A stretch of 64,000 bases of DNA from the NCBI GenBank assembly GCA_966211675.1, contig CBIHPK010000001.1:27814-91813 (forward strand). The letters are read 5' to 3'. Below are positions 26,599 through 43,248 of this stretch, piece after piece. The notes beneath the pieces were generated by a model. That model did no database searches, was not told the origin of the DNA, and saw nothing but the letters and a program-made list of their open reading frames with translations. The translations under genes and the position numbers were made by a program. This DNA is from an uncultured Myxococcaceae bacterium. GTDB lineage: Bacteria > Myxococcota_A > Polyangia > Polyangiales > Ga0077539. Numbering within the stretch: position 1 is the stretch's first letter; each line of letters opens with the position of its first letter.

Positions 26599-28707
26599 AT
26601 GAACCATCCCACGCTCCCTCTCGTGCTCGGCCTCCTCGCGGCGCAGGGCCTCGGGTGCCAGCGCGATCGCCCCTCGGCCCCGGCCACCCCTCCGGTGCAG
26701 GCCGGTCCCAACGCCCTCGGCCCCGACGGTCGGCCTCGCACCGGGACGCCCGGCACCCCCGCTCGCCCCGCTCGCGTGGGCCTCGCCGTCGGCCTCGTCG
26801 AGGGGCGGATCAAGCCCCCCGACGACAAGCCCAACGACGACGAGGACCGCCACCGGGTGCACCCCGAGTGGTACCCCACGGGCCAGCCGAACAACCCCTA
26901 CCCCGCAGGCACGGTGATCCCGATCGCTCCGCCTCCGCCGGGGCTCTCCATCACCCCGCTGCCCCCGATGCAGCCCATGGGTCAACCGACCATGCAGCCC
27001 ATGGGTCAGCCGTCCATGCAGCCCATCGTCGGCAATGGCGTGACGATGGTTCCGATAGGCCCTTCGGGTCCGAGCCCGACGCCGATGGCCGGCAACGGGG
27101 TGACCATGGTCCCGATGGCGCCGCCGGGTGGGCGACCCTCCGCCCCGACGCCGTCGCCGATGGGTCAGCCACAGGTCCCAATGGGCACCGGGGCCGTCGC
27201 GCAGACCTTCCAGGGGACGCTCGATCCGTCCGCGGAGCGCGACCCGGCCGGGCGCTTCTTCCGGGTGCACCAGGTCTCGCTCCAGCGCGGATCGCGCGTC
27301 GCCGTCACCATGCAGAGCCCTCAGTTCGACACGCTGCTGCGGGTCGAGCCGCCCACCGGGGACGCGGTCGAGAACGACGACGTCACCCGCGAGGACACCA
27401 ACTCCCGCGTCGACTTCACGGCCCCCATCGACGGCCGATACCGCATCGTCGCGACCTCCTACGCCCCGGCCACCGCGGGGGCCTACACCATCCAGGTGAG
27501 CGCCGGAGCGCCGGGGCAGGGGCTCATGGTCACCGGCTCCAACAACAACGCCCCCGACGCGCAGACCGGCCCCGGCGGAACCATCGTCCCCGGCACTCCG
27601 GTCAACGAGTACCTGACCCCGGGCGATCCCTCCTCGGGCGGGCGCTTCGTGCGCGCCTACCGCCTCGAAGGCCGCCAGGGGGACATGGTCACGCTGCGGC
27701 TCAGCTCCACGGGCTTCGACCCCACGCTCGCGCTCATCGCCCCCAACGGACAGCGCTGGAGCAACGACGACACCAGCCCCTCGGACACCAACAGCACCAT
27801 CGCGATGACGCTCCCCGAGGCCGGGAGCTACCGGGTCGAGGTGTCGTCCTACCGACCCGGCGCGACCGGGCCCTTCAGCCTCACGGCGGCCTCGTCGGCC
27901 CGTCCGACGGTGGCCTCCAACGGCGCCCCCGTGGGCAGCGTCGCGGGCCGCGCGGGGCAGGGCAACATGTACGGCGTCTTCGTCGGCATCTCCGACTACG
28001 GCAGCCGCGGCAACCTCTACGGCTGCGCCGACGACGCGCGGCAGCTCGCGCAGGCGTACATCAACGCGCACCTCGGAGCACCGCAGAACTTCGTGGTGCT
28101 CACCGACGCCGAGGCCACCACCTCCGCGGTGGCCCAGGCCTTCCAGACGATGGGGTCGCGCGTCGGTCCCAACGACGTGTTCATGTTCTTCCACTCGGGG
28201 CACGGCAACCGCGCCGAGTCGCACGACACCGCGGCGGACCCTGACGGCTACGTCGAGTCCATCGTGCTGCGCGACGGCGAGATCAACGCGCACCAGATGG
28301 CCACGCTCTTCGACGGGGTGCACGCCGACGTCGACATGCTGGCGCTCGACAGCTGCTACTCCGGGGGCTTCGAGCGCTCCTTCGGCGCGTCGCGCAACCG
28401 CTTCGGGATGTACAGCTCCGAGGAGGACGTGCTCTCCCAGGTGGCCCAGCGCTTCCAGGCGGGGGGCTACCTCTCGTACTTCCTTCGGCGCGGCGTCTCC
28501 GAGGCCGACAACAACCACGACGGCGCCGTGCGAGCGGGCGAGCTCGCGGACTACCTGCACCGCCAGTACGCGCAGAACCTCCAGCAGATGCAGACCCAGG
28601 ACGGCCAGGACGTCGAGACCTGGCAGCACCTGGTGATCAACCGCTCGGGCGTGGCGCTCAACGATCAGCTCTGGCGCTTCCCCCTCGTCAACGCCGTCGC
28701 GCGGTAG
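26599..28707 (+). CDS. Lipoprotein with Pro/Met/Gln-rich linker, two PPC (pre-peptidase C-terminal-like) domains and a C-terminal caspase-like (peptidase C14) domain
   Basis: GGAGA lies 9 nt upstream of the ATG. MNHPTLPLVLGLLAAQGLGC carries a lipobox. Two domains of about 100 aa end in ...GAYTIQVS and ...GPFSLTA. The caspase dyad context is FFHSGHG (His codon at 28201) and LALDSCYSGG (Cys codon at 28354). Confidence 0.85.
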   Translation: MNHPTLPLVLGLLAAQGLGCQRDRPSAPATPPVQAGPNALGPDGRPRTGTPGTPARPARVGLAVGLVEGRIKPPDDKPNDDEDRHRVHPEWYPTGQPNNPYPAGTVIPIAPPPPGLSITPLPPMQPMGQPTMQPMGQPSMQPIVGNGVTMVPIGPSGPSPTPMAGNGVTMVPMAPPGGRPSAPTPSPMGQPQVPMGTGAVAQTFQGTLDPSAERDPAGRFFRVHQVSLQRGSRVAVTMQSPQFDTLLRVEPPTGDAVENDDVTREDTNSRVDFTAPIDGRYRIVATSYAPATAGAYTIQVSAGAPGQGLMVTGSNNNAPDAQTGPGGTIVPGTPVNEYLTPGDPSSGGRFVRAYRLEGRQGDMVTLRLSSTGFDPTLALIAPNGQRWSNDDTSPSDTNSTIAMTLPEAGSYRVEVSSYRPGATGPFSLTAASSARPTVASNGAPVGSVAGRAGQGNMYGVFVGISDYGSRGNLYGCADDARQLAQAYINAHLGAPQNFVVLTDAEATTSAVAQAFQTMGSRVGPNDVFMFFHSGHGNRAESHDTAADPDGYVESIVLRDGEINAHQMATLFDGVHADVDMLALDSCYSGGFERSFGASRNRFGMYSSEEDVLSQVAQRFQAGGYLSYFLRRGVSEADNNHDGAVRAGELADYLHRQYAQNLQQMQTQDGQDVETWQHLVINRSGVALNDQLWRFPLVNAVAR
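26968..27024 (+). repeat. 24-nt tandem coding repeat (about 2.4 copies) encoding MQPMGQP(T/S)
   Basis: atgcagcccatgggtcaaccgacc at 26968-26991, atgcagcccatgggtcagccgtcc at 26992-27015, and a partial atgcagccc at 27016-27024. A second duplicated unit encoding GNGVTMVP follows at about 27031-27120. Confidence 0.8.
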
Positions 28708-31480: not shown

Positions 31481-32974
31481 TCACCCCCCGACCATCCACG
31501 CTCCCAGCGTCGCGTCCGTCGCCTCGCTCGCCGCCACCTCGCCCACGACCTCGCCCTGCCGCAGCACCATCACCCGGTCGCTCAGCGCTCGCAGCTCGTC
31601 CAGCTCCGACGACACCAGCACCACCGCCACGCCCTTCGCCCGCAGGCCCCGCAGCGCCTCGCGGATCACCTCCGCCGCCCTCAGGTCGACCCCCCTCGTG
31701 GGCTGCGCCACCAGCAGCAGCCGCGTCGCCGTCCGCAGCTCTCTCGCCATCAGCACCTTCTGCTGGTTGCCCCCGGACAGCGACGAGAGCGCCGCGTCCG
31801 GGTCCGTCGGCCGCACGTCGAAGCGCGCGATCGCCTCCCTCGCGACCTCCCTCGCCGCCGCCCCGTCGTAGCGGCCTCCCAGGGTCGCCGCCGCCACCTC
31901 GCCCAGCGCCAGGTTCTCCGCCACCGTGAGCTCGCCGAAGAGCCCGTGACCCTCGCGGTCCTCCGGGACGAAGCCGACGCCCCGGGCGCGCCGACCGGCC
32001 ACCGTCTCTCGCGTCACGTCCTCGCCGCCCAGGGCGATCGTGCCCGCCTCGCAAGGGCGCAGCCCGGCGAGCATCTCCAGCAGCGCCCGCTGCCCGTTGC
32101 CCTCGACCCCAGCCACCCCCAGCACCTCGCCCGCCCGTAGCGCCAGCGTGAACGGACCCGCTCCCCCGCCTCGCACCTCGCGCATCGCCAGCGCCTCGCC
32201 CGCGGTCCCCTCCTTCAGCGCGCCCGTCTTACCCGACGCGGTATGCTGCGCGTCGCCGACCACCGCCGCGACCACCGCCTCTCGGCTCGTCGCCGCCGCC
32301 TCCGCGGTCAGCGCCACCTTGCCCCGGCGCAGCACGGTGATCTCGTCCGCCACCGCGAAGACCTCGTCGAGCTTGTGCGTCACCAGCAGCACCGCCGCGC
32401 CCTGCGCCGCCATCGCTCGGATCGCCCCCAGCAGCCCCGACACCTCCGCGGGCGAGAGCACCGCCGTGGGCTCGTCGAGCAGCACCACCGTCGCCCCGCG
32501 GTGCAGCACCTTCAGGATCTCCACCCGCTGCCGCTCGCCCACGCCCAGCGAGGCCACCGTGGCCGACGGGTCCACGGGCATCCCTCGCGCCTCGGCCAGC
32601 GAGCGAACGCGGGCGTCCATCGCGGCCCGGTCGATCAGCCACCCGAAGGGACCGCGCCGGGGCTCGGCGCCCAGCACGACGTTCTCGGCGACGGTGAGCG
32701 CCTCGGCCAGCATGAAGTGCTGGTGCACCACGCCGATGCCCGCACCGAGCGCGGCGCGCACGTCCCCGGAGGGGAGCTCGGAGTCGTCGACCAGGACGCT
32801 CCCCGCGTCGGCGGCGACCAGGCCGCAGAGGCATCGGATGAGGGTGCTCTTGCCCGCGCCGTTCTCGCCGACGAGCGCGTGCACCCGGCCGGGGGTGAGG
32901 GTGAGGGAGACGCCGTCGAGCACGACGCAGTCGCCGTAGGCCTTGCTCAGGCCGAGCGCTCGCAGCGTCGGCAT
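31481..32974 (-). CDS. ABC transporter ATP-binding protein with duplicated NBDs (sugar/nucleoside-importer type)
   Basis: Walker A GENGAGKST, LGVGERQRVEILK, Walker B VVLLDEPT, a second signature LSGGNQQKVLMAREL, and LLVAQPTRGVD. Confidence 0.9.
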   Translation of the reverse strand: MPTLRALGLSKAYGDCVVLDGVSLTLTPGRVHALVGENGAGKSTLIRCLCGLVAADAGSVLVDDSELPSGDVRAALGAGIGVVHQHFMLAEALTVAENVVLGAEPRRGPFGWLIDRAAMDARVRSLAEARGMPVDPSATVASLGVGERQRVEILKVLHRGATVVLLDEPTAVLSPAEVSGLLGAIRAMAAQGAAVLLVTHKLDEVFAVADEITVLRRGKVALTAEAAATSREAVVAAVVGDAQHTASGKTGALKEGTAGEALAMREVRGGGAGPFTLALRAGEVLGVAGVEGNGQRALLEMLAGLRPCEAGTIALGGEDVTRETVAGRRARGVGFVPEDREGHGLFGELTVAENLALGEVAAATLGGRYDGAAAREVAREAIARFDVRPTDPDAALSSLSGGNQQKVLMARELRTATRLLLVAQPTRGVDLRAAEVIREALRGLRAKGVAVVLVSSELDELRALSDRVMVLRQGEVVGEVAASEATDATLGAWMVGG

Positions 32975-33990
32975 CAGTGCGGGTCGGGGTGCGCGGTGGC
33001 GTGCGGGTCGAAGGGCGGCAGGTTGCCCAGCTCACCAGGGGGCAGGTGGATGAGGTCGAGCCGCTCCTCGTGCACCTCCGGGTGCAGCCGGTCGCGCGCC
33101 TCCTGGAGCAGCGCCGCGGTGCGCTGCGTGCGACGGTCGCGCACCAGGAAGCCCCGGATCGTCGCCACCACCCCGGGGTCGCTCACGTCGCGCCGCAGCG
33201 CCGGGCGCGTGCCGGTGAGCACCCCGACGCCGAAGCGGTTGTTGGCCAGCGCCACGGGCTGCGGCGTGACGTCCATCTCGCGGGCGAGGGTGAACACCGC
33301 CGAGGCCAGCGCCGGATCGACCGGCTGACCGTCGCCCGTGGGCGCCCCGCTGCGCTGGAAGTAGAACACGTCTCCCTCGCGGGCCTTGGAGGGCTCGTCG
33401 ACCGAGCGCTCGCGCACCAGCTCCCGCACCCGGCGCAGGTCGCCGCGGGCGGCGCGCACCTCCGCGATGGTCCTCGCGGCGGTCTCGCGGTCGGCGGTGA
33501 TGATCACCGTCGCGCGTCGGTACTCGGGCTGCTGGTAGTCCGTGAGATGCGCCTGGTAGTACGCGCTCACCTCGCTCGCGGGGATGGACTCCGGCGTCAC
33601 GGCCTCGAGCACCGCGCGCTGCTCCAGGCGCTGCGACAGGATGCGCCGCACCGAGGCGGACACCTCGGGGTTGCGGTCGAGCCCCTGCCGCCTCGCCTCG
33701 CCGGCCAGGAGGTAGGTGGTCACCAGGTGCTCGAGGTACGCGCGCCGCTCCTCGGGCGCGAGGTAGCGCTGGCGCACGGGGCCGGGGGCCTCGTTGAGCA
33801 TGTCCTCGAACTCGCCGACGGTGATCGTCTGGTCGCCGACGCGGGCCACCACCTGCGCTCGACGGGCGGCCTCCGCGGGCGTCACCCCGGCGTCGGCGGC
33901 GGGCTGGGGCACGGGCTGAGCGCCCGCGGCGACGGGGCACAGCAGGCCGAGGAAGAACAGCGGGAGCAGGCGCGCAACAGGGCTTCGCAT
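32974..33990 (-). CDS. Secreted SurA/PrsA-like parvulin-type peptidyl-prolyl isomerase family protein
   Basis: Internal start MRSPVARLLPLFFLGLLCPVAAGA is a signal peptide. A SurA-N-like helical region (VARVGDQTITVGEFEDML) is followed by a PpiC-like segment. The stop overlaps the ABC ATPase start as ATGA at 32972-32976. Confidence 0.7.
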   Translation of the reverse strand: MRSPVARLLPLFFLGLLCPVAAGAQPVPQPAADAGVTPAEAARRAQVVARVGDQTITVGEFEDMLNEAPGPVRQRYLAPEERRAYLEHLVTTYLLAGEARRQGLDRNPEVSASVRRILSQRLEQRAVLEAVTPESIPASEVSAYYQAHLTDYQQPEYRRATVIITADRETAARTIAEVRAARGDLRRVRELVRERSVDEPSKAREGDVFYFQRSGAPTGDGQPVDPALASAVFTLAREMDVTPQPVALANNRFGVGVLTGTRPALRRDVSDPGVVATIRGFLVRDRRTQRTAALLQEARDRLHPEVHEERLDLIHLPPGELGNLPPFDPHATAHPDPH

Positions 33991-34066
33991 CGGTGGCAAC
34001 CCGGGTCGCACGGCCCCGCCCGCGACGTCAAGCGCGGCCCCGACGTGATAGCGTGCGGGTGCGCCC

Positions 34067-35107
34067 ATGCGATGCCTCCAGTGCCAGAGCCGCGTGACGC
34101 CGACGATGCGCCGCTGCCTTCGGTGCGGGGCGGTGCTCCCCAAGCCCGGGGCGCTCACCATCGAGACACTGGCCCGGCCGGCCGCGCCCTACGCCTCGGG
34201 CGACCGGGTGGTGGGGCGCTACCGCATCCTCGAAGCGCACGGCTCGGGGCCGCTCGGGACGACGTACCGGGCGCACGATCCGACGGGGCGCACCATGGCC
34301 GTGAAGGTGCTGCCCCCGGCGCTCTTCCCGGGGGACACGGAGCGGCGGGAGTTCGTCGAGCGCTACGGAGCGCTCTGCGGCCGGACGCTGCCCGGCGCGG
34401 CGCTTCCGCTGGAGGTGGGCGTCGACAACGAGGTGGTCTTCGTGGCCTCGACCTGGGTGTACGGCGCGTCGCTGCGCTCCATCGTGCGAGCCTACCGCGC
34501 GGCCGACCGGCGGCTGGAGCGCGACCAGGTGCTGGGCGTATTGCGCGGCGTCTACGAGGGACTGCGCTCGCTGCACGCGATGACCACCCACGGGGCGGTG
34601 TACCCGGAGAACGTCTCGGTCACCTCCGACGCGGTGGTGCTTCTCGACCCGGGCCTCGCCGCCGCGCTGCCGCCGCGGAGGTTCGTCGAGCGCGTCGAGC
34701 GGGCGCCGGAGGTCTGGCCCTACATCGCCCCGGAGCTTCGCGTGGGCAAGCGCGCCAACGCCGGGGCCGACCTCTTCGCGCTCGGGGCCCTCGCCTCGGA
34801 GCTGCTCACCGGCGACCCCGCTCGCTCCTCGTCGCCGGACTTCACCGCCGCCGACCTGGGGACGGCGCTCGAAGGGGCGATGCGCGCCGCGGTCTCGGCG
34901 CAGGCCTCGCGGCGGGTGTCCGCGGTGCCCGACCTGCTCGCCGGGCTCGCGCAGATCGCGGGCGAAGCGTCGCTGCCGCCCTACGCGCCGCTGCCGTCGC
35001 CGTCGGAGATGGTCGACGCTCGCACCCGCCGGGTGATATTGCGGGGCCCCGCGGGCGCCCGTCCGACGCCGCCGCGGTCACCCCGGCGCGAGCGCAAGGT
35101 CGGTTGA
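34067..35107 (+). CDS. Zinc-ribbon plus kinase-like domain protein (predicted pseudokinase)
   Basis: N-terminus CLQC...CLRCG. Retains GSGPLGT, MAVKVL, DPG and YIAPE. The catalytic loop is HGAVYPEN (34589-34612) rather than HRDLKPEN. Confidence 0.75.
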   Translation: MRCLQCQSRVTPTMRRCLRCGAVLPKPGALTIETLARPAAPYASGDRVVGRYRILEAHGSGPLGTTYRAHDPTGRTMAVKVLPPALFPGDTERREFVERYGALCGRTLPGAALPLEVGVDNEVVFVASTWVYGASLRSIVRAYRAADRRLERDQVLGVLRGVYEGLRSLHAMTTHGAVYPENVSVTSDAVVLLDPGLAAALPPRRFVERVERAPEVWPYIAPELRVGKRANAGADLFALGALASELLTGDPARSSSPDFTAADLGTALEGAMRAAVSAQASRRVSAVPDLLAGLAQIAGEASLPPYAPLPSPSEMVDARTRRVILRGPAGARPTPPRSPRRERKVG

Positions 35108-35171
35108 GCGATCGGCGCGCGGAGTCTGCTAGTGTCGAGGATTCCTCTCCGAGTGAGCACCTGAGGTTGGT

Positions 35172-36662
35172 GTGAGCGTCCCCAGCGCGTGTCCGCATTG
35201 TCAGAAGCCGCTGCCCGACGGGTACATCGGCAAGGCCTGCCCGCACTGCCGCGGGGCGCTCGCCAACAAGCGCAAGCGCTCGCTGTCGGGCTTCTCCTTC
35301 CAGGCGATGCAGCCCTCCATGGCCGGGTCGTCTCGGCCGCCGCACTCGCCCCACTCCAGCGGTCCCCCGCGGGAGGTCGTCGAAGACCGCTGGGACCTCC
35401 CCGATCACGGCGTCGAGGCCTCGCGAGAGCGGGGGGCGGTGCCTCCGGCCGCGCCCACGGGCTTTCCCGCGGTGCCGTCGCCCTCTCCCGTCGCCTCGCC
35501 GACGCGCGCCTCGGGGCCCGACCCCATCCGCACGACGGCCCTCCTCGACCCCTTCGCCTGGAACCTCGACCACGCCCAGTCCCCCGCCGCCGCTCCCGCG
35601 CGCAGCAGCGTGCTCGATGTGCGAACGCTGCGGCAGACCGCGCTCGGGGTGGGCGCCCAGGCCGCTCCCTCGCCGCACCCTCCGGGCCCCTCCGCGGCGG
35701 CTGGGCCCTCCATGGCGGCGCTCCGCTCGACCGCGCTGGGCATCGCGCCGATGCCCGCGGCCCCGGCCTCGACGACGGACTTCGAGGACTCCGACGACGT
35801 GTTCGAGGCCGACGCCTTCCCGCTGGTTCGCAGCACCCAGCCCTCCGGGACCACGGTCCCGACGAGGCCTCCTCCGTCGCTCGACTCCGCTGGCGAGATG
35901 CACGAGGGCATCGAGATCCCCTCGTCTCCGGCCCCCGACTTCGAGCTCGGCTCGCACTACGCCGACCTCGAGGGGGGCGACCCCCGCCCCTCGCAGATGC
36001 CGGCCTACTCGCCCCTTCGCGCGCCTCCCTCGCTCCATCCCCCTCCGGCCACTCCGGTCGCGTGGGTCTGGTCCATCGGCGGCGCGGCGCTGGTCCTGTC
36101 CGCGGTGGTCGCGCTGCGCTCGGCCCCGCTGGCGGTCGCCCTCCGCGCGGCCGCCGGGGCGGCGTCGCTGCTCATGCTGGCCCGCTTCGGCGGCCTCTCG
36201 ATGCGGGCGCTGCTGCTCCTGCTGGTGGCCCTCCCGGCGCTGGCGCAGGAGGCGCTCTCCATCGCCTCGCTCTCCCGCGCCGGGGCCGCGGTGCTCACCG
36301 GCGCGCTGGTGCTGCTCCCGGCCGGCGCGTGGATCTCCTCCGATCGCGCCCTGGTGCGCCGCGCGCTCCTGCTCGCGGGCGTCGTGCTGACGGTGGCCGC
36401 GATGCTGATGCCGGGCGGGGTCGCTCGCCCGTGGGCCTTCGGCGCGATGCCGGCGCTGGTGCTGGCGCTGGTGGCGATGGCGACCCCGGTCCGCCCGGTC
36501 TCCGCCGCCCTCACCGTGGCGCTGATGGCGTGGGCCGCGGCGTGCGGCGCGAGCGACGGCGGCCCGACGCTGCCCGCGGTCGCGACGGGCCTGGCGACGG
36601 CCGCGCTGGTGCTGCTGTGCGGCCGGGCGCTGGCCGCGGTGGTGGAGAGCGACGAGGGGTAA
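35172..36662 (+). CDS. Zinc-ribbon, Pro/Ser-rich linker, multi-TM membrane protein (function unknown)
   Basis: GTG start. N-terminus CPHCQKPL...CPHCRG. A low-complexity P/S/A region of about 280 aa. About six hydrophobic helices fill the last roughly 190 aa. Confidence 0.7.
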   Translation: MSVPSACPHCQKPLPDGYIGKACPHCRGALANKRKRSLSGFSFQAMQPSMAGSSRPPHSPHSSGPPREVVEDRWDLPDHGVEASRERGAVPPAAPTGFPAVPSPSPVASPTRASGPDPIRTTALLDPFAWNLDHAQSPAAAPARSSVLDVRTLRQTALGVGAQAAPSPHPPGPSAAAGPSMAALRSTALGIAPMPAAPASTTDFEDSDDVFEADAFPLVRSTQPSGTTVPTRPPPSLDSAGEMHEGIEIPSSPAPDFELGSHYADLEGGDPRPSQMPAYSPLRAPPSLHPPPATPVAWVWSIGGAALVLSAVVALRSAPLAVALRAAAGAASLLMLARFGGLSMRALLLLLVALPALAQEALSIASLSRAGAAVLTGALVLLPAGAWISSDRALVRRALLLAGVVLTVAAMLMPGGVARPWAFGAMPALVLALVAMATPVRPVSAALTVALMAWAAACGASDGGPTLPAVATGLATAALVLLCGRALAAVVESDEG

Positions 36663-36668
36663 GGAGGG

Positions 36669-38330
36669 CTACGCGCCCACGTCCAGGCTCACCCCCGCCA
36701 GGAAGGCCCTGCGAGCGTCCATCTCGTCGTCGGCGTAGAGGCCCTCGGCGTCCGTCAGCGTCACCGCGCGCGAGCTCCCTCGCTGCGGGTCGCGCAGCTC
36801 CAGCGAGAGCACCCCGTCGCGGCCCACGCGGAGGATCACCTCCACCGGCGCCCCGTCCGCCAGGCCCTCGTCGAGCGCCACCTCGAAGCGCCCCAGCGGC
36901 GTCGCCTCGGAGAGCGACGCGCCCTCCAGCACCTCGATGGGCAGCACCCTCGCGCCGCCCCGCTTGCGAAACACCCGCCGCCCCTCGAAGGGAACCCTCG
37001 TCAGCGCCGGCACCAGCACCGCCAGCGCCTCGCGCCGCTCTCCCGGCCTCGACGGGTCCGCCTCCCGCGCCCGCACCCCCAGCGCGTCGGGGATCACCCC
37101 GTGGTAGTCCGCCCCGGCCTTACTCCCCTCGGTAAGACAGCGCTCGGCATAGAGCGCCGCCCCGGCCGCCACCGCGCACGCCGGGTTGAGCGGGTCGTCC
37201 GCGTCGTCGAAGATCCGCACCGCGCTCGCCCCCCGCAGCGCCCTCAGCCGCGCCTGCACGGGGTATAGCCAGCTCGACCCGCCCACCAGCAGCACCTCGT
37301 CGAGCCCCGACCAGCCCAGCGCCGCCCGCGAGAGCGCCTCCTCGGCGCAGTCCACCGCGCGCTCGGTGAGCTCCTCGGTCCAGCGGGCGAGCTCCGCGAG
37401 GGTCACCCGCACCACCGACGGAGGCAGCGCCGCGCCCCCCTCGGTGCGCAGCGCAATCGTGCGCGACGCCACCCTCGCCATCGGGTTGGCGTCTAGCGTG
37501 GCGTGCTGGTTGAGCTGTATCTTCACCCCCTCGGCCACCGAGAGCAGCGCCTCCCGCGAGGCCTCGTCGAGGTCTTCGAGTCCGGTGCCCGAGGCTCCCA
37601 CCGACGCCACGTAGCGCTCCAGCAGGCGCTCTCGGAGCAGCTCGTCCACGCCGAGCCCCCCGAGCTGCACCCCGTACGAGGCCAGAGCCTCCAGCGTCGG
37701 CGAGCCCGCTCCCCCGCCGCGCCGGAGGATCGTCACGTCGAGGGTCCCGCCGCCGAAGTCGAAGACCATGAAGCGCGCGTCGCGAGCCCCGAAGCGCTGA
37801 CCCATGCCATAGGCCCACGCCGCCGCGTCGGGCTCCGGGAGCATCGCGACGGAGGACAGGCCCGCGAGGGAGACCGACTGCGCCACGGCGCGCCGCTCGC
37901 GGTTGCGAAGGCGCTGCGGGTGCGTGACCACCACGCCGTCGATGGGGGGCAGCCCCGGGGTGCGCTCGACCCAGGTGCGAAGCGCCCGCAACACCAGGGC
38001 GCCGAGGTCCGTCGAGTGCAGCTCCATCGGGCCGAGCGACCAGGGAGGACCGCCCACGACGGCGTGGGAGACCGCCAGGTGATTCTTGCTGCCGCGCACG
38101 AGGGCCATGCGGGGAGGCGCGCAGCCGAGGGCGGCGCAGCGGTCGCGCCAGGCGAGGGCCGCGCGTCGCCCGACGGTCACCGCCGGCCGAGCGGGGTCGG
38201 AGCCGTCGAGCAGCACCGTGGAGGCGAGCGTCACTCCGCCCGACTCCAGCGGGATCATCCTCGCGACGCCCCGGTGAGCGAGCGCCACGGACGCGTAGGT
38301 GGTGCCGAGGTCGATGCCGTAGAACGCCAT
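36669..38330 (-). CDS. Hsp70-family ATPase paralogue (non-canonical; no lid region or EEVD recognised)
   Basis: Internal start MAFYGIDLGTTYASVA (phosphate-1 motif). FDFGGGTLDVT (phosphate-2). LLVGGSSWLYPV (adenosine motif). The C-terminus is short and looks beta-rich by eye, and I recognised no canonical lid or EEVD. The upstream 58 codons of the track ORF are Ser/Ala junk. Confidence 0.85.
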   Translation of the reverse strand: MAFYGIDLGTTYASVALAHRGVARMIPLESGGVTLASTVLLDGSDPARPAVTVGRRAALAWRDRCAALGCAPPRMALVRGSKNHLAVSHAVVGGPPWSLGPMELHSTDLGALVLRALRTWVERTPGLPPIDGVVVTHPQRLRNRERRAVAQSVSLAGLSSVAMLPEPDAAAWAYGMGQRFGARDARFMVFDFGGGTLDVTILRRGGGAGSPTLEALASYGVQLGGLGVDELLRERLLERYVASVGASGTGLEDLDEASREALLSVAEGVKIQLNQHATLDANPMARVASRTIALRTEGGAALPPSVVRVTLAELARWTEELTERAVDCAEEALSRAALGWSGLDEVLLVGGSSWLYPVQARLRALRGASAVRIFDDADDPLNPACAVAAGAALYAERCLTEGSKAGADYHGVIPDALGVRAREADPSRPGERREALAVLVPALTRVPFEGRRVFRKRGGARVLPIEVLEGASLSEATPLGRFEVALDEGLADGAPVEVILRVGRDGVLSLELRDPQRGSSRAVTLTDAEGLYADDEMDARRAFLAGVSLDVGA

Positions 38331-38349
38331 GAGGGTGCAGGTATAGGTC

Positions 38350-38363
38350 GCCGAGGCCTCGGC
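38350..38363. promoter_or_regulatory. Perfect 14-bp palindrome GCCGAGGCCTCGGC in the divergent Hsp70/giant-gene intergenic region (candidate operator)
   Basis: Read directly from the sequence. It lies 20 nt upstream of the Hsp70 start (38330) and about 70 nt upstream of ATG 38434. Confidence 0.3.
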
Positions 38364-38433
38364 GCGCGACCCGCTTTCTGGTGCATCCGCCGCGGTGGGC
38401 GCCATGATCGCCGCGAAGGTTCCATGGTCTGCG

Positions 38434-41400
38434 ATGCGCTCTGACGACGAGGCCTTCCTGGAGCTGGAGGACGAGGCCCCCGAGGCGCCGTCGACGGACC
38501 CCACGCCGCACCTCCCCGAGGCCCGCGACGACGAGGCCTTCCTCGAGCTCGACGAGGTCGCCCAGAGCCCCCTCGCTCGGGCCGTCCGGGTGGTCAGCGA
38601 CGACGACCTGCGCGCCGTGACCGCCCTCGCCGAGGACGACCGCCCCCTCCTCGACGCGCTCTACCCCGCGCAGCCCGACCTCGCGGCCCGCCCTCCCTCC
38701 GCCGCCGCCCTCTCCGAGCGCCTCGCCTTCGTGCGCGCCGCGCTCAACCAGGTCACCCGCCGCGGCGCCGAGTGGCGCGCCCGCGCGGAGGTCGCCGGAT
38801 CGGCCCTCGCCCGACGCCTCGAAGCCCTCTCCGGCCACGGGGAGCTCAGCGCCGCCGCGCTCGCCGAGCTCATGGCCTGGCACGAGCGGGCCCTCGAAGC
38901 CCTCATCACCCGCGAGGCCGGCGACGCCCGGGCGCTGCACCCGCCGGAGCTGCGCCGCCTCGACGAGGAGGCCGCCCGCCGTGGCCTCAGCGCCGACTTC
39001 GCCCGCGCCGTCGCCGAGCGCCTCGGGGTCGCTTTACACCGCGATGTATCCCTGGCGTGGTCGCCCTGCGACGCGCTGCCGGGCGCTCCCCGCACCCTCG
39101 ACGCCGCCGCCGCGGCCATCACGGAGAGCGTCGCCCACGCAGTGGTGGCCCTGCGCGACGGGGCCCTCTCGGCGTGGCTCCGCGCCAACCGCGGTGAGCC
39201 CGCCCTCGTCGCGATCGCCCTGGAGTCCGAGGCCCTCGCTCGCGGCCCTGACACCGACGCGGCGCTCATCGGCGCCTGGACCCTGGCCTGGGCCATGGGC
39301 CGCGAAGGCGTCGCCGTCGACGGGCTCGCGGTGACCTCGCCGGAGCTGCTCCGCACGCACCTGCGCGCGGGTCGCCTGGATGCGTCGAGGGTGCGCTCGC
39401 AGGGCCGGGCGCTGGGCGCGTGGTTTCGCCGCGAGGGCCACGGCGCGGTGGCGGCCGCCTGCGAGGCGCTGGCGAGGGACGAGGCCCACGCGGAGCTGCG
39501 GCTCTCCTGGGCGCTGGGCGAGCCGCTGCGGCTGGCGTCCAAGCCCGTCGCCGATCCGACGGCCCTCGCGAGGGAGGTGCTGCGCCGGCCCGAGGCGCGC
39601 GCCGAGGCGCTCGATCGCTGGCGCGACGGGACGCTGCTCGCGTGGATGGACTCGCTCCCCCGGGCGAGGCGCGACGCGGCGTGGATCGAGGACCTCTCCT
39701 CCCCGCGCGCCCACGACGCCGACGAGGGGGCGTTCTGGCGAGGGGTCTATCGTCGCGCGCCGAGGGCCTCGCTTCGGGTCTTCGTGGAGGTGGGCTCCTC
39801 GACCCGGGCGGTGCGCTTCGAGGGCATCGGCGACCTGCGCTCGACGGCCCGCGTCGCGGCCGCCTGGGGCGCACTGAGAGAGGCCCACCTGAGGGCGGAG
39901 CTGCACGCGTGGCTGGCCCGCTCGGCGCCGGGGCTGGAGCTCGACGCCCCCCCGAGCGCCGCTGACGACGGGGCGCTGCTTCGGCTGCTCTGGTCGCTCG
40001 GAGCGACGGGCCTGGTGCTGGCTCGCGGCGCGTCGGGCTCGGCCATCGACACGCCGGCGGACCTGGTGCTCGCGTGGCGTCGTGCTCCGCTGGTGCTGGA
40101 GGCCGCGCTCGCCTCGGGCCTCGTGGGCGAGTGGCTGCGGCGCTTCTTCGCGCAGGACGGGGTCTCCGGGCTGAGCCTCGGCGACGCGATGACCCGCTGG
40201 GGCGTCGGCTTCGGCGCGGGGGTGGCGCCCTCTGGCGTGGCGGCGCTGCGGTGCGCGCTGCTCTGCGGGCTCACGGCGATCCCCAGCGACCCGACCGCGA
40301 GCGGAGGCCCCGATGGACGGGCGCTGGTGGGCTTCGTCGGCATCGACCCGTCCCGTCGCGACGACGCCGTGTGGTCCGAGCTGCTCGATGCGCCGGGCGA
40401 TCCGCTGGGGCAGGGGACCGCGCTCCTCTGGGCCGCGAGGCACGCGCCCGCGCTCGGGGTGCTCGCCGCGGCGGGCGACGGAGCCGCTCGCGAGGCGGTG
40501 CGGGACGCGCTGCTGGCCGCGGGGCGACCGGTCCCCTCGGCGCCCCTCGCGGAGACCCTCGCGGACCAGGCCGCCCAGGCCGAGCGCCGCGCCCGGCAGA
40601 GGGCCCTGCTGGAGGAGAGCGAGCGCATCGCGGCGCAGCGGGAGGCGGCGCGCTCGCAGCTGGAGCGCGAGGCCGCGAGGGTGGCCGCGGAGCGCGAGGC
40701 GGCGAGGCGAGAGGCGACCAGGGACGCGCTGCGGCGCGAGGTCGACCGGGAGGTCGCGCGCATCGAGTCGGAGCGCGAGGCGGCGAGGCGCGCCCACGAG
40801 CGGGCCCTCGCGGCGCTGCAGGCCGAGCGGGCGCTGGCGGAGGCCGAGCACGCGAGGGCGATGACCGAGCTCTCGCTGGCGAGGTCGCGCTCCTCGGGAG
40901 ACGGGGCCGAGGTCGTGGACGCCGCGGCGCTCGAGGCGCGCTGGCGCGAGGCGGCGAGGCGGGCGGCCGAGGAGGAGGTCCTTCGGGCCGTGGCGCGCTC
41001 GGAGGAGGAGCTGCGCGAGGCGGCGCTTCGGGCGGCGGAGCAGGCCGCGGCGGAGGAGGTGCGCCTCGCGGCGGAGTCCCTGGCGGCGGAGCGGGCGAGG
41101 CGGGAGCGCGCCGAGGCGGCGCTGTCCTCGACGCTGGGCGAGCTGCTGGCCCGCGAGGGCGCCCTGCGCGCGGAGGCGGAGCGAGCGGCCGAGGAGGCGA
41201 CGCGGGTGGCGCTCTCCCTGGCCGAGGGCGAGACGCAACGGGTCGAGGCCGAGCAGCGGGCCGAGGAGGCCACGCGGCGCGCGGAGTCCGCGAAGGCCGA
41301 GCGCGTGGCGGCCGAGTGGGCCGCGCAGCAGGCGAGGGCCGAGGAGGAGATCGAGGCCCTGGCGAAGGCCGAGCGGGAGCGCCGAGCGGAGGCGACGCGC

Positions 41401-43248
41401 CTCGCGCTGGAGGAGACGGGGCCGCGCCCCGCGCTGGCCGAGGAGCCCGCGGTGGACGAGGGCTTCACCGAAGACCCGACCGCCGAGGCCGCGGACGACG
41501 TCGGCGAGGAGCTGCTCAGCAGCGACCGCCACGAGGTGGCCTACGACCGCCTCGCGGTGGCCTACGAGGGCGTCGACGACGCGGCGCTCGCGGGCCTGCG
41601 AGACGCGGTGGACGCCTGGTCCCGGGGGAGGCCGAGGCACCCGCTGGCCGCGCTCGGGTCGGCGATGGTGGTCGACGCGGTGACGATGATCCCGGCCTTC
41701 GAGGCGCACGTGGCGACGCGGCTGGAGTCGCGCTCCATCGAGCGGAGGGTGGTGTCCGGCGACGACGACGAGGAGGCCGTGGAGGTGGGCGCCGAGGCCT
41801 CCGCCGGGGGCGACGAGGCCCTCGACGCATGGCTGCTCGACCTCGCGCCCGTCGACACCTGGGACCGCCTCACCGTCGACGCCCCGCTCGCCCTCCGACC
41901 CCGCCGCGAGCCCTGCCCCCGGTGCGCCGTCGACGCACCCCCGGGCATTCCCACCGGCCGCTTACGCTGTGAGGTATGCGACGCCCTCGGCACGGTGGTG
42001 TGCGTCCGCTGCGGCGGCTTCGGTCGCTCCCGCTGCGGCCGATGCGGCGGCAACGGCCAGGTGCTCGTCCCCGGCGGCGGAACCCGTCGCTGCCCCGCCT
42101 GCGACGGCCGCGGCGACGTCGCGTGCGGGTGCTCTCTCGGTCGGGTGGCGTGCGGCGCGTGCGAGGGCGTCGGCCACGGCCCGTGCCCCACCTGCGGCGC
42201 CGACGGCGTGGTGGAGACCCGCCCCTGGGTGTCCCAGTCGGCGCTCGGCGTGCGCGCCCGAGCGGTCGTCGCGGTGGGCCTGCCCCCGGAGCTCGCCGCC
42301 GAGGTGGGCGTCCCCGGCAGCGAGGCCGACGCGGTGGTGCACATCGAGGCCGACGCGATCGACCCCGCCGCCCTGGCGCGCGAGCTCCCTCACGACCACC
42401 TCGGCGCCGCGCTCGCCGACCTGCTCTCCGCGGAGACCGCCCGCGCCTCCGAGGGGCAGCGGGTGACCCGCCAGCAGGTGGTGGTCTGGCGCTACCCCGC
42501 GTGGCGAGTACAGGTGCATGTAGACGGCGAGGCCTTCACGCTCTGGGTGCACGGCGCCCGCAGGCGGGTGTGGGCCGAGCGCTCGCCCCTCGACGCCGCC
42601 ACCGAATCCGCCGTCGCCTCGGTGCGCGCGCTCATCGCCTCCGACGCCCTCGACGCCGCCATCGACCGACTGGTCGCCCTCGCGAGTGAAGACCCTGGCC
42701 ACGCCGGGGCCCGCGACGCGGCGACGGCGCTCGGCGACGCGGTGCTGGCGATGGCCGAGCGGGGCGAACTCTACGAGGCCCAGCGGCTGGCCGGGCTGGG
42801 CGCGGCGGTGCGCTGGCCCGATGCGGTGTCGCGGCTGGTGCAGGCCGAGCGCGTGGCGGGTCGCCGGCTCCACAAGCGCTCCTCCTGGGCGCTGCTGGAG
42901 GACGCCCGCTCGGCGCTGCAGCGAGGCCTCGACGCGAGGGCGCTCGACCTGCTGGGCGAGCTCCACGCCGTGGCCCCAGGCGACGCCGAGGCCGAGGCGC
43001 TGGCGGGCGAGCTCGGTCGGCGGCTCGACGCACAGGCCGGGGCGCTGGTGTCGCGAGGCGCCCTCGACGACGCGACGGCGCTGCTCTCTCGGGTGGACTC
43101 CTCCGGCGCCCCGGCGGTGCGATCGGCGATGGCCACCTCCGCGGCCTCGCTCCAGCGAGCGAGGAGGCGCTCGGCGCTGCGGAGGGCGGCGGTGGTGGCC
43201 GCGGCGCTTCTGCTGGTCGCGCTGGCGGTGCTCGCGCTGCTGCGGTGA
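38434..43248 (+). CDS. Giant (about 1604 aa) tail-anchored protein: acidic N-terminus, large helical region, charged coiled coil, 6x CxxCxGxG zinc-finger cluster, helical C-terminal domain, C-terminal TM
   Basis: Single uninterrupted ORF 38395..43248; ATG 38434 (MRSDDEAFLELEDE) is preferred, with GTG 38395 and ATG 38404 as alternatives. E/R/A-rich heptad-like region at about 40555-41425. CxxCxGxG motifs at 41913-42210. C-terminus RRAAVVAAALLLVALAVLALLR. Confidence 0.85.
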   Translation: MRSDDEAFLELEDEAPEAPSTDPTPHLPEARDDEAFLELDEVAQSPLARAVRVVSDDDLRAVTALAEDDRPLLDALYPAQPDLAARPPSAAALSERLAFVRAALNQVTRRGAEWRARAEVAGSALARRLEALSGHGELSAAALAELMAWHERALEALITREAGDARALHPPELRRLDEEAARRGLSADFARAVAERLGVALHRDVSLAWSPCDALPGAPRTLDAAAAAITESVAHAVVALRDGALSAWLRANRGEPALVAIALESEALARGPDTDAALIGAWTLAWAMGREGVAVDGLAVTSPELLRTHLRAGRLDASRVRSQGRALGAWFRREGHGAVAAACEALARDEAHAELRLSWALGEPLRLASKPVADPTALAREVLRRPEARAEALDRWRDGTLLAWMDSLPRARRDAAWIEDLSSPRAHDADEGAFWRGVYRRAPRASLRVFVEVGSSTRAVRFEGIGDLRSTARVAAAWGALREAHLRAELHAWLARSAPGLELDAPPSAADDGALLRLLWSLGATGLVLARGASGSAIDTPADLVLAWRRAPLVLEAALASGLVGEWLRRFFAQDGVSGLSLGDAMTRWGVGFGAGVAPSGVAALRCALLCGLTAIPSDPTASGGPDGRALVGFVGIDPSRRDDAVWSELLDAPGDPLGQGTALLWAARHAPALGVLAAAGDGAAREAVRDALLAAGRPVPSAPLAETLADQAAQAERRARQRALLEESERIAAQREAARSQLEREAARVAAEREAARREATRDALRREVDREVARIESEREAARRAHERALAALQAERALAEAEHARAMTELSLARSRSSGDGAEVVDAAALEARWREAARRAAEEEVLRAVARSEEELREAALRAAEQAAAEEVRLAAESLAAERARRERAEAALSSTLGELLAREGALRAEAERAAEEATRVALSLAEGETQRVEAEQRAEEATRRAESAKAERVAAEWAAQQARAEEEIEALAKAERERRAEATRLALEETGPRPALAEEPAVDEGFTEDPTAEAADDVGEELLSSDRHEVAYDRLAVAYEGVDDAALAGLRDAVDAWSRGRPRHPLAALGSAMVVDAVTMIPAFEAHVATRLESRSIERRVVSGDDDEEAVEVGAEASAGGDEALDAWLLDLAPVDTWDRLTVDAPLALRPRREPCPRCAVDAPPGIPTGRLRCEVCDALGTVVCVRCGGFGRSRCGRCGGNGQVLVPGGGTRRCPACDGRGDVACGCSLGRVACGACEGVGHGPCPTCGADGVVETRPWVSQSALGVRARAVVAVGLPPELAAEVGVPGSEADAVVHIEADAIDPAALARELPHDHLGAALADLLSAETARASEGQRVTRQQVVVWRYPAWRVQVHVDGEAFTLWVHGARRRVWAERSPLDAATESAVASVRALIASDALDAAIDRLVALASEDPGHAGARDAATALGDAVLAMAERGELYEAQRLAGLGAAVRWPDAVSRLVQAERVAGRRLHKRSSWALLEDARSALQRGLDARALDLLGELHAVAPGDAEAEALAGELGRRLDAQAGALVSRGALDDATALLSRVDSSGAPAVRSAMATSAASLQRARRRSALRRAAVVAAALLLVALAVLALLR

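Follow-up and report, generated by a model that had tools for sequence, protein, structure and literature searches.

A conserved divergent gene pair encoding a lidless Hsp70 and a giant protein with a predicted DnaJ-type zinc finger and membrane anchor in uncultured Polyangiales-like Myxococcota

The 64,000-nucleotide stretch analysed here (the window) comes from an uncultured Myxococcaceae bacterium (GenBank assembly GCA_966211675.1, contig CBIHPK010000001.1, positions 27,814 to 91,813) and contains two divergently transcribed genes, one coding for an Hsp70 that lacks the helical lid and the other for a 1604-residue protein (the giant) with a predicted DnaJ-type zinc finger, no detectable J domain and a C-terminal membrane anchor. 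Our leading, if tentative, reading is that in a clade of uncultured Polyangiales-like Myxococcota the two form a module in which the lidless Hsp70 works with the giant as a J-less co-chaperone or scaffold at the inner membrane. A preliminary description, made from the letters of the window, had proposed a dedicated membrane-associated Hsp70 module of four genes; the conserved Hsp70-giant pair and the tail anchor of that proposal stand, and the zinc-ribbon pseudokinase and the zinc-ribbon membrane protein encoded beside them do not hold up as partners. The pair comprises:

36669 to 38330, minus strand: lidless Hsp70, 553 aa, assigned from Pfam HSP70, an alignment to DnaK and a family alignment
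38434 to 43248, plus strand: giant tail-anchored protein, 1604 aa
38331 to 38433: divergent intergenic region shared by the two genes, 103 bp

Conservation of the gene pair

Species-representative genomes were scanned with an alignment of the giant, which yielded 20 loci, and the window proteins were compared by tblastn with these and with other fetched loci. The preliminary description had named conservation of the Hsp70-giant adjacency in relatives as a check on its proposal, and in 15 of 20 informative loci the two genes indeed lie divergently side by side (among them L006, L007, L009, L010, L012, L015, L016, L017, L018, L020, L022, L027 and L028, as well as L013, which is on the same contig as L001). 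Over the adjacent loci the identity to the window proteins falls from 90% to 62% for the Hsp70 and from 90% to about 40% for the giant, with the orientation and a spacing of 58-116 bp kept in most loci and a single gap of about 1 kb. None of the genes for the ABC ATPase, the peptidyl-prolyl isomerase (PPIase), the kinase, the zinc-ribbon membrane protein and the amylase of the window is adjacent to the pair at a giant identity of about 50% or less, one locus retaining an inverted amylase homologue about 7 kb away. Because the pair stays together where the other checked window genes do not, and because the ratio of non-synonymous to synonymous substitution rates (dN/dS) of its members is 0.17-0.28, the adjacency appears to go beyond what chance would give.

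Between orthologues, dN/dS comes to 0.17-0.21 in the Hsp70, 0.22-0.28 in the giant and about 0.2 in the kinase. All four open reading frames (ORFs) of the preliminary description are present where it had placed them and intact, with a G+C content at third codon positions (GC3) of 0.93-0.94, in line with the coding genes of the window at large (GC3 about 0.93, GC1 above GC2). By these measures all four are under purifying selection and none is a decaying pseudogene, a fate that had been considered earlier for the Hsp70 ORF. In L028, the giant orthologue is split over three frames (positions 1-2696) at the start of a 473-kb contig, by either real decay or an assembly frameshift, and the adjoining Hsp70 is truncated to 412 aa.

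The lidless Hsp70

The Hsp70 can be divided as follows:

37146 to 38330, minus strand: nucleotide-binding domain (NBD), about residues 1-395, by alignment to DnaK
36723 to 37100, minus strand: beta part of the substrate-binding domain (SBD-beta), residues 411-536, with an insertion of about 10 aa in loop L1,2
After SBD-beta: C-terminal tail of 17 aa, a helix-A remnant, GLYADDEMDARRAFL

The protein scores 122.7 bits against Pfam HSP70 (PF00012; cut-off 20.6). Against the NCBIfam equivalogs, whose DnaK/HscA cut-offs span 620-1019 bits, it reaches about 123 bits with DnaK models (cut-offs 648 and 822.55) and 116.9-121.8 bits with HscA models (cut-offs 620 and 708.55), a pattern that on profile evidence identifies it as an Hsp70 but neither DnaK nor HscA. 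Alignment to the DnaK structure spans the NBD and SBD-beta and stops at about DnaK residue 512, leaving only 17 residues, which bears out the short C-terminus without a canonical lid or EEVD of the preliminary description. All 21 members of the family alignment (A4) stop at the same point, after a conserved helix-A remnant (GLYADDELxxRRxWL), and the family is therefore lidless; the window protein ends in GVSLDVGA, with neither a helical lid (SBD-alpha) nor EEVD, and the family alignment has no conserved EEVD-like terminus. The residues equivalent to D7, K82, E166, D191, G193-195 and T196 are invariant or nearly so in the same alignment. The loop L1,2 insertion (ADPSRPGERR), located at the position of ETMGG in DnaK, is conserved in the family at about ten residues, and the interdomain linker reads ADYHGVIPD where DnaK has VLLLD, the family pattern at this place being [VLA][DE][YLIV][HRQS]G.

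As currently understood, every characterised Hsp70 cycle depends on a J domain, the HPD motif of which contacts R167, Q378 and the linker: D35 bonds R167 and Q378 and H33 bonds the linker backbone at L391, while E206, D211 and E217 of DnaK position the J domain (PMC8215388). In alignment A4, the equivalents of R167, N170 and T173 are A/G, P/T and D, respectively (R167A in the window protein), and Q378 is replaced by Y in the alignment to DnaK. The window-DnaK alignment further reads E206R and D211A, in a loop (206-217) where the alignment is uncertain. That these contact residues are substituted here, when R167, N170 and T173 are all retained in the J-dependent HscC, argues against the docking of a canonical J domain on proteins of this family.

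The Hsp70 start at 38330 (MAFYGIDLGTT) agrees with the N-termini of about 20 homologues, and is for this reason favoured over that in a public gene call (L033), which begins 25 codons upstream with an ATG at 38405 and would leave 28 bp to the start of the giant gene. Myxobacteria are already known to possess many divergent Hsp70 homologues with unknown, specialised function (PMC8265645).

Domain architecture of the giant protein

Neither the giant nor its homologues give an above-threshold match in Pfam, NCBIfam or PADLOC. The homologues form 28 clusters at 90% identity, nearly all of 1500-1800 aa, and those that are named come from Polyangiales/Myxococcales-type metagenome-assembled genomes (MAGs). 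The anatomy of the protein was worked out from an alignment of 18 homologues and two AlphaFold2 models, one of the C-terminal 565 aa (predicted local distance difference test, pLDDT, 90.8) and one of the N-terminal 735 aa (mean pLDDT 86.7):

38434 to 38583, plus strand: disordered acidic N-terminus, aa 1-50, pLDDT below 50
38596 to 40578, plus strand: N-domain, about aa 55-715, mostly helical, with four beta-hairpins and many invariant Trp
40579 to 41553, plus strand: predicted coiled-coil stalk, about aa 716-1040 (A 27%, E 21%, R 17%)
41554 to 42588, plus strand: beta-rich domain with an inserted zinc-finger array, then an alpha/beta subdomain, aa ~1041-1385
42586 to 43128, plus strand: tetratricopeptide repeat (TPR)-like helical repeat domain, about aa 1385-1565 (helices 346-526 of the C-terminal model)
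43171 to 43248, plus strand: C-terminal tail anchor, one transmembrane (TM) helix at aa 1580-1603 followed by one residue and the stop

The inserted array consists of eight cysteine pairs (aa 1161-1254; 41914-42195), the 16 cysteines of which are invariant across 18 homologues; four of the pairs fit the strict CxxCxGxG pattern, which corrects the six such motifs counted in the preliminary description. Aligned by hhalign against residues 120-357 of E. coli DnaJ, the C-terminal alignment of the giant matches with 95.3% probability (E 2e-8) over the finger only, and a family profile searched against PDB recovers the DnaJ finger structure 1exk (E 7e-4), DNAJA2 (2e-3) and BSD2 (0.02). Single-sequence Pfam matches in this region stay under the gathering score, with BSD2_CRD seen in 7, Anti-TRAP in 4 and DnaJ_CXXCXGXG in 3 of 14 members. 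On these profile comparisons the array is homologous to the DnaJ cysteine-rich zinc finger, as had been proposed from the motifs, with zinc binding predicted and the eight pairs probably making up four Zn sites. The sixth pair of the window protein (42124-42132; aa 1231-1233) is reduced to C-G-C by a one-residue deletion, also present in three public contigs with an identical protein; the other 17 homologues have CxxC here.

A J domain, by contrast with the finger, was not found by any of five approaches, in agreement with the preliminary description. PF00226 has no match at E <= 1 in the four window proteins or in 13 N-terminal and 14 C-terminal family fragments; none of the four window proteins has an HPD tripeptide; tblastn with DnaJ, CbpA, DjlB and DjlC against the window and all loci leaves the pair and its surroundings without a match; comparison with a J-domain alignment by hhalign returns a probability of 0.1%; and a fold search with the giant models has no J-domain match. 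For the coiled coil (aa 736-1039), the test consists of the full-length Pfam scan only.

At the membrane end, the TM helix noted in the preliminary description is recovered as a hydrophobic segment with a Kyte-Doolittle maximum of 3.04 (aa 1580-1604), preceded by RARRRSALRR and kept in all full-length homologues. The giant has no N-terminal hydrophobic segment, and the protein is accordingly predicted to be tail-anchored with its bulk in the cytoplasm. The helical domain ahead of the anchor finds only TPR proteins as its top Foldseek matches in PDB (an APC/C subunit, a consensus TPR, BamD, LapB and Tom71), with probabilities of 0.9-1.0, E-values no better than 1.4e-3 and TM-scores of 0.1-0.3; Pfam TPR matches occur in just 2 of 14 members, at E > 0.2.

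The N-terminal 55 aa of the giant carry a net charge of -9 to -16 across the family and bear twin D-D-E-A-F-L-E-L motifs (aa 4-11, 38443-38466; aa 32-39, 38527-38550), with the family form D-D-E-A-F-L-E-[LV]. Both are found in 17 of the 18 aligned members, the 18th (P0145) beginning further downstream. The following N-domain has no PDB analogue (best Foldseek E 1.8), no Pfam match in 13 members and only 42 relatives among 1.84 billion representative proteins; its invariant NQVTRRGxEWRARAEVA forms the tip of a long helical hairpin (aa 90-133). Within it, four helix-plus-beta-hairpin units (39271-40188; aa 280-585) share a recurring W-x-L-G-x-x-G motif, and one pair of units reaches a probability of 73% in hhalign, the remaining comparisons being weak; an internal repeat is thus possible but unproven. 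The coiled coil differs in length among homologues, the total protein length being 1513-1799 aa, and its profile matches to TolA and similar proteins reflect low complexity only. A word-indexed search started from the C-terminal alignment brought back just one fragment, low-complexity words having apparently overwhelmed it.

Relationship to known Hsp70 systems

The closest known analogue of the pair is E. coli HscC with DjlB and DjlC, which are encoded in the hscC-djlC-ybeU-ybeT-djlB locus. HscC works with these tail-anchored J-proteins, the genes of which adjoin hscC (PMC8215388). The likeness extends to the size of the Hsp70, about 550 aa in HscC with an insertion in SBD-beta loop L1,2 (550-580 aa being the criterion given in PMC8215388, against 553 here), to the juxtaposition of the Hsp70 gene with that of a C-terminally tail-anchored inner-membrane partner, which implies action at the cytoplasmic face (PMC8215388), and to the presence of TPR-class (Sel1) repeat proteins in the E. 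coli locus. However, in addition to the J-contact residues that set the two families apart, HscC keeps a lid with a shortened helix B and extends about 60 aa further, whereas the window Hsp70 is lidless, and the J domain of DjlB/DjlC stimulates HscC whereas the giant has no detectable J domain. In BLASTP the window Hsp70 is 29% identical to HscC over the NBD only, no closer than to DnaK, and the giant has no similarity to DjlC. The J-domain signature of E. coli djlC itself (L029:4213-5664) reads HPE rather than HPD.

With class A J-proteins (DnaJ/Ydj1) the giant shares the homologous finger, which the model places between the strands of a beta domain, an arrangement also seen in DnaJ CTD-I, and in DnaJ this finger contributes to client binding (Linke et al. 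2003, as reported in PMC8215388). It differs from them in lacking the J domain and the G/F region, in having eight Cys pairs as opposed to four, in a flanking beta domain that does not align to the DnaJ C-terminal domains, and in being about four times larger and membrane-anchored. Plant BSD2 and B. subtilis anti-TRAP, too, have a CxxCxGxG-type finger without a J domain; but these measure only about 50-140 aa, with a single domain, two Zn sites and no adjoining Hsp70 gene, whereas the finger of the giant is doubled and sits within a 1604-aa tail-anchored multidomain protein. A different kind of likeness is seen with the DO-GTPase (GAP1-N2) conflict systems, in which specialised HSP70s occur in dedicated operons of multicellular bacteria, some with TPR or zinc-ribbon-kinase partners (PMC7159879), and sister clades of the window Hsp70 do sit in tubulin-like operons. 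The Hsp70-giant pair nevertheless has no GTPase, GAP1, tubulin, GrpE or DnaJ component beside it; Pfam scans of nine flanking genes, in which no dedicated DO-GTPase or GAP1 models were used, recovered no DO-GTPase, GAP1 or tubulin. The earlier remark that this is not recognised as a described system has to be tempered, in that HscC with DjlB/DjlC provides a clear organisational precedent; the pair itself departs from HscC in lid, J-interface and specific relatedness, and from the J-proteins in lacking a J domain.

The sister clades, Hsp70s with 45-50% (L003, L005) and 31-35% (L030, L031) identity to the window protein, are likewise lidless with a substituted J-interface, and have no adjoining giant. 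Three of the four sister loci examined share a different conserved operon (L005:5099-9983, L031:205-10981, L030:1247-15958), which codes for a tubulin-like protein (weak Pfam Tubulin_2), a 573-637-aa protein and a large protein of 790-1153 aa, the last having three GYF_2 domains and a weak Ppx-GppA/ASKHA match in L031. Proteins of about 105, 134 and 495 aa are common to L005 and L031 (two of these three loci). The operon has no PADLOC match and may represent a version of the HSP70/tubulin conflict systems that Kaur et al. 2020 described. None of its proteins has a tblastn match in the window or profile similarity in the giant, and the idea that the giant is a fusion of sister-operon proteins was ruled out on the latter ground. 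The lidless Hsp70 hence appears to be a dedicated-partner Hsp70, the partner set of which has been exchanged in the clade studied.

The N-domain of the giant, conversely, recurs away from Hsp70s. Proteins of 900-1500 aa (L023:9665-13471, L024:9578-13477, P0147, P0148 and P0155) combine a giant-type N-domain with a TM helix midway along the chain and a C-terminus that is different and probably extracytoplasmic (with LCCL in P0148 and P0155), and carry a degenerate twin xLE[VLI] motif at the N-terminus. They have no coiled coil, zinc finger or TPR and no Hsp70 neighbour. As these homologues without the zinc finger and TPR are also without an Hsp70, the Hsp70 link tracks the C-terminal module of the giant.

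Functional interpretation of the pair

In the reading that we tentatively favour, the giant would be a co-chaperone or scaffold that is tethered to the membrane and has no J domain. The zinc-finger/beta/TPR module near the membrane would hold clients, the binding of clients by the zinc finger and beta domains of DnaJ serving as the model, and would bring the Hsp70 to the inner membrane on its cytoplasmic side, while the coiled coil would be a spacer and, together with the N-domain and its twin DDEAFLEL motifs, would choose or place the target. It would then fall to the giant, or to substrate alone, and not to a J domain, to drive the Hsp70 cycle. Relative to HscC/DjlC, what would be new is a dedicated membrane Hsp70 module in a J-less form. 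The stronger version, that a non-J element of the giant has taken over both the recruitment and the ATPase/allosteric triggering of a lidless membrane Hsp70, is in our estimate rather unlikely; candidate trigger elements are the doubled DnaJ-type finger with the beta/TPR module and the hairpin tip formed by NQVTRRGxEWRARAEVA. If true, it would constitute a second, independently evolved way of driving an Hsp70.

Several observations weigh against a J-less partnership of this kind. Adjacency is absent in five of the 20 informative loci (L008, with 82% giant identity, L014, L019, L021 and L025), where unrelated genes lie upstream (gamma-glutamyltranspeptidase, an active kinase, type VI secretion VipA and others), and in STL-MYX9 (GCA_046351555.1) the giant (L025, contig 7) and a 67%-identical Hsp70 (L026, contig 32) are unlinked, though that this genome keeps both genes counts in favour of the pairing. 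All carriers are related uncultured MAGs of one order, and shared ancestry inflates the adjacency counts; the case for a functional link is made throughout by genome comparison. Further, because the sister clades with the same traits sit in different operons, the lidless and J-less traits are older than the pairing with the giant, which did not shape them. The TPR assignment is weak, with E-values no better than 1e-3 and low TM-scores, and a classical TPR clamp would find no EEVD on the Hsp70. Finally, a J protein encoded elsewhere in the genome may act in trans. Upstream of the relocated Hsp70 of STL-MYX9, on the same strand, there is a gene for an 861-aa Cys-rich protein with a weak Dickkopf_N match.

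The principal rival turns the relationship around: the giant would be a client, and the Hsp70 a dedicated factor for its assembly or maintenance (solubility, anchor insertion or oligomer remodelling), perhaps acting via the DDEAFLEL motifs. Given its great size, coiled coil and tail anchor, the giant could plausibly be an obligate client of a chaperone, its long disordered N-terminus offers two conserved linear motifs with a hydrophobic core, the adjacency of the genes fits equally, and tail-anchored DjlC of E. coli requires DnaK for its biogenesis (Peschke et al. 2018, cited in PMC8215388). Yet the twin motif also occurs in the distant N-domain homologues that have no Hsp70 neighbour, motifs with acidic flanks make poor DnaK-type sites, the net charge of SBD-beta (about -1) does not differ from that of DnaK, and a DnaJ-type finger and TPR-like domain would be superfluous in a mere client; we therefore hold this to be unlikely, if far from fanciful. 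(A charge complementarity between an Arg-rich SBD-beta and the acidic motifs had been entertained, and was dropped given that equality of net charge with DnaK.) Lower in probability stand two further readings. The pair could belong to a conflict or regulated-assembly system akin to the HSP70/tubulin systems with DO-GTPases, with the giant as a sensor/effector scaffold of NTP-dependent membrane assemblies: such systems have been described (PMC7159879), Myxococcota are multicellular, sister Hsp70 clades (48%, 35% and 31% identity) lie in tubulin-like/GYF operons, and a caspase-family protein is encoded 8 kb upstream of the pair. This we consider quite improbable, as no GTPase, GAP1, tubulin or effector-type domain is found in or beside the pair and no sister-operon homologue in the window; PADLOC matches the kinase with generic kinase models only and is blank for the Hsp70, the giant and the other zinc-ribbon protein; and the giant, conserved over its whole length and passed on vertically amid housekeeping genes, in a window of uniform GC content, is neither hypervariable nor island-borne.

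It is equally hard to credit that the two genes have no functional link and owe their proximity to residual synteny among relatives and a shared divergent promoter. The restriction of all loci to one order-level lineage, the five loci without adjacency and the genome with the two genes on different contigs would agree with it, but the five other checked window genes are non-adjacent in distant loci where the pair keeps its orientation and mostly its 58-116-bp spacing, and the giant bears domains of the Hsp70 co-chaperone type. Least credible of all is the extension of the module to four genes, as in the preliminary description, with the zinc-ribbon pseudokinase and the zinc-ribbon membrane protein as regulatory or membrane partners. 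In the window, as in L006, L009 and L018, the four genes follow one another across short gaps, both additional proteins start with zinc ribbons, and zinc-ribbon kinases are linked to some HSP70 conflict systems (PMC7159879). However, L006, L009 and L018 are the only relatives with these genes beside the pair, and there they form a separate left-flank block that also takes in the ABC ATPase and PPIase genes; L007 and L010, whose Hsp70 is still 84-86% identical, lack them beside the pair, as do all loci further away. What is conserved is thus a unit of two genes and not four. The membrane protein moreover diverges fast, down to 36% identity in L018, and Ser/Thr kinases are so abundant in Myxococcota that proximity by chance is expected. 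The two proteins are thus probably bystanders of local synteny, and regulation through the pseudokinase finds no comparative support.

If the Hsp70 and the giant do work together, as in the co-chaperone reading, the significance of the pair would lie in an Hsp70 family that has lost its J-contact points and lid and kept its catalytic residues, next to a partner with a DnaJ-type finger and no J domain. It would show how the targeting and triggering of an Hsp70 can proceed in the absence of a J domain, and which of the other parts of DnaJ suffice for the partnership, and it adds to the little-studied theme of membrane-tethered Hsp70 action known from HscC/DjlC. The 660-aa N-domain merits attention in its own right, in combining a confident model with the absence of a PDB analogue and few relatives. 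In practical terms, every carrier is an uncultured MAG.

Neighbouring genes and intergenic region

The window is uniform in composition, at about 74% G+C along its whole length, and tRNA and Rfam scans of it gave no match. The 103-bp region between the Hsp70 and giant genes, in accord with the gap of about 100 bp in the preliminary description, contains a perfect 14-bp palindrome (GCCGAGGCCTCGGC, 38350-38363) that L006 and L009, relatives with 90% identity, do not share. Two blocks, CGCGCGACCCGCTTTCTGG and CCATGATCGCC, are common to the window and these two loci, amounting to partial conservation in close relatives. No sigma-70-like site was found in the region; a GG-N10-GC (sigma-54-like) spacing is present in some loci and not in all, and is expected by chance at 74% GC.

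Two genes flank the pair on its left:

34067 to 35107, plus strand: zinc-ribbon pseudokinase, 346 aa, Pkinase 36.3 bits; a neighbour, probably outside the module
35172 to 36662, plus strand: protein with a zinc ribbon, Pro/Ser linker and multiple TM segments, 496 aa; a neighbour, probably outside the module

The kinase ORF has an N-terminal CxxC..CxxC and matches Pfam Pkinase. Compared with THRDVKPEN of PknE, its loop THGAVYPEN has lost the HRD Asp and has Tyr for the loop Lys, with the VAIK Lys and DFG Asp kept, and HGA[VL]YPEN is present in all four kinase orthologues. The label of zinc-ribbon pseudokinase given in the preliminary description, or at least that of an atypical kinase, thus seems justified on the conserved motifs. 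A 26% identity to a kinase near the giant in L019 was judged to be due to chance because of the abundance of such kinases. The second protein conforms to its earlier portrayal, with CPHC..CPHC, a Pro/Ser-rich linker and a hydrophobic block of about 200 aa (aa 295-493) as the C-terminal membrane part, and has no match in Pfam, NCBIfam or PADLOC. NCBIfam and PADLOC scans of the four proteins returned only generic kinase matches and the sub-threshold DnaK/HscA scores.

About 8 kb upstream of the pair, 26599-28707 codes for a 702-aa protein with two PPC (pre-peptidase C-terminal) domains and a caspase-family Peptidase_C14 domain; in L028 a gene with a weak Peptidase_C14 match lies about 7 kb from the Hsp70-giant pair. 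The longest ORF of the SurA-N/rotamase (PPIase) gene (32974-34161) overlaps the divergent kinase gene by about 95 bp, and as its first 48 or so codons are not conserved in frame in L006/L009, the true start is probably near codon 49.

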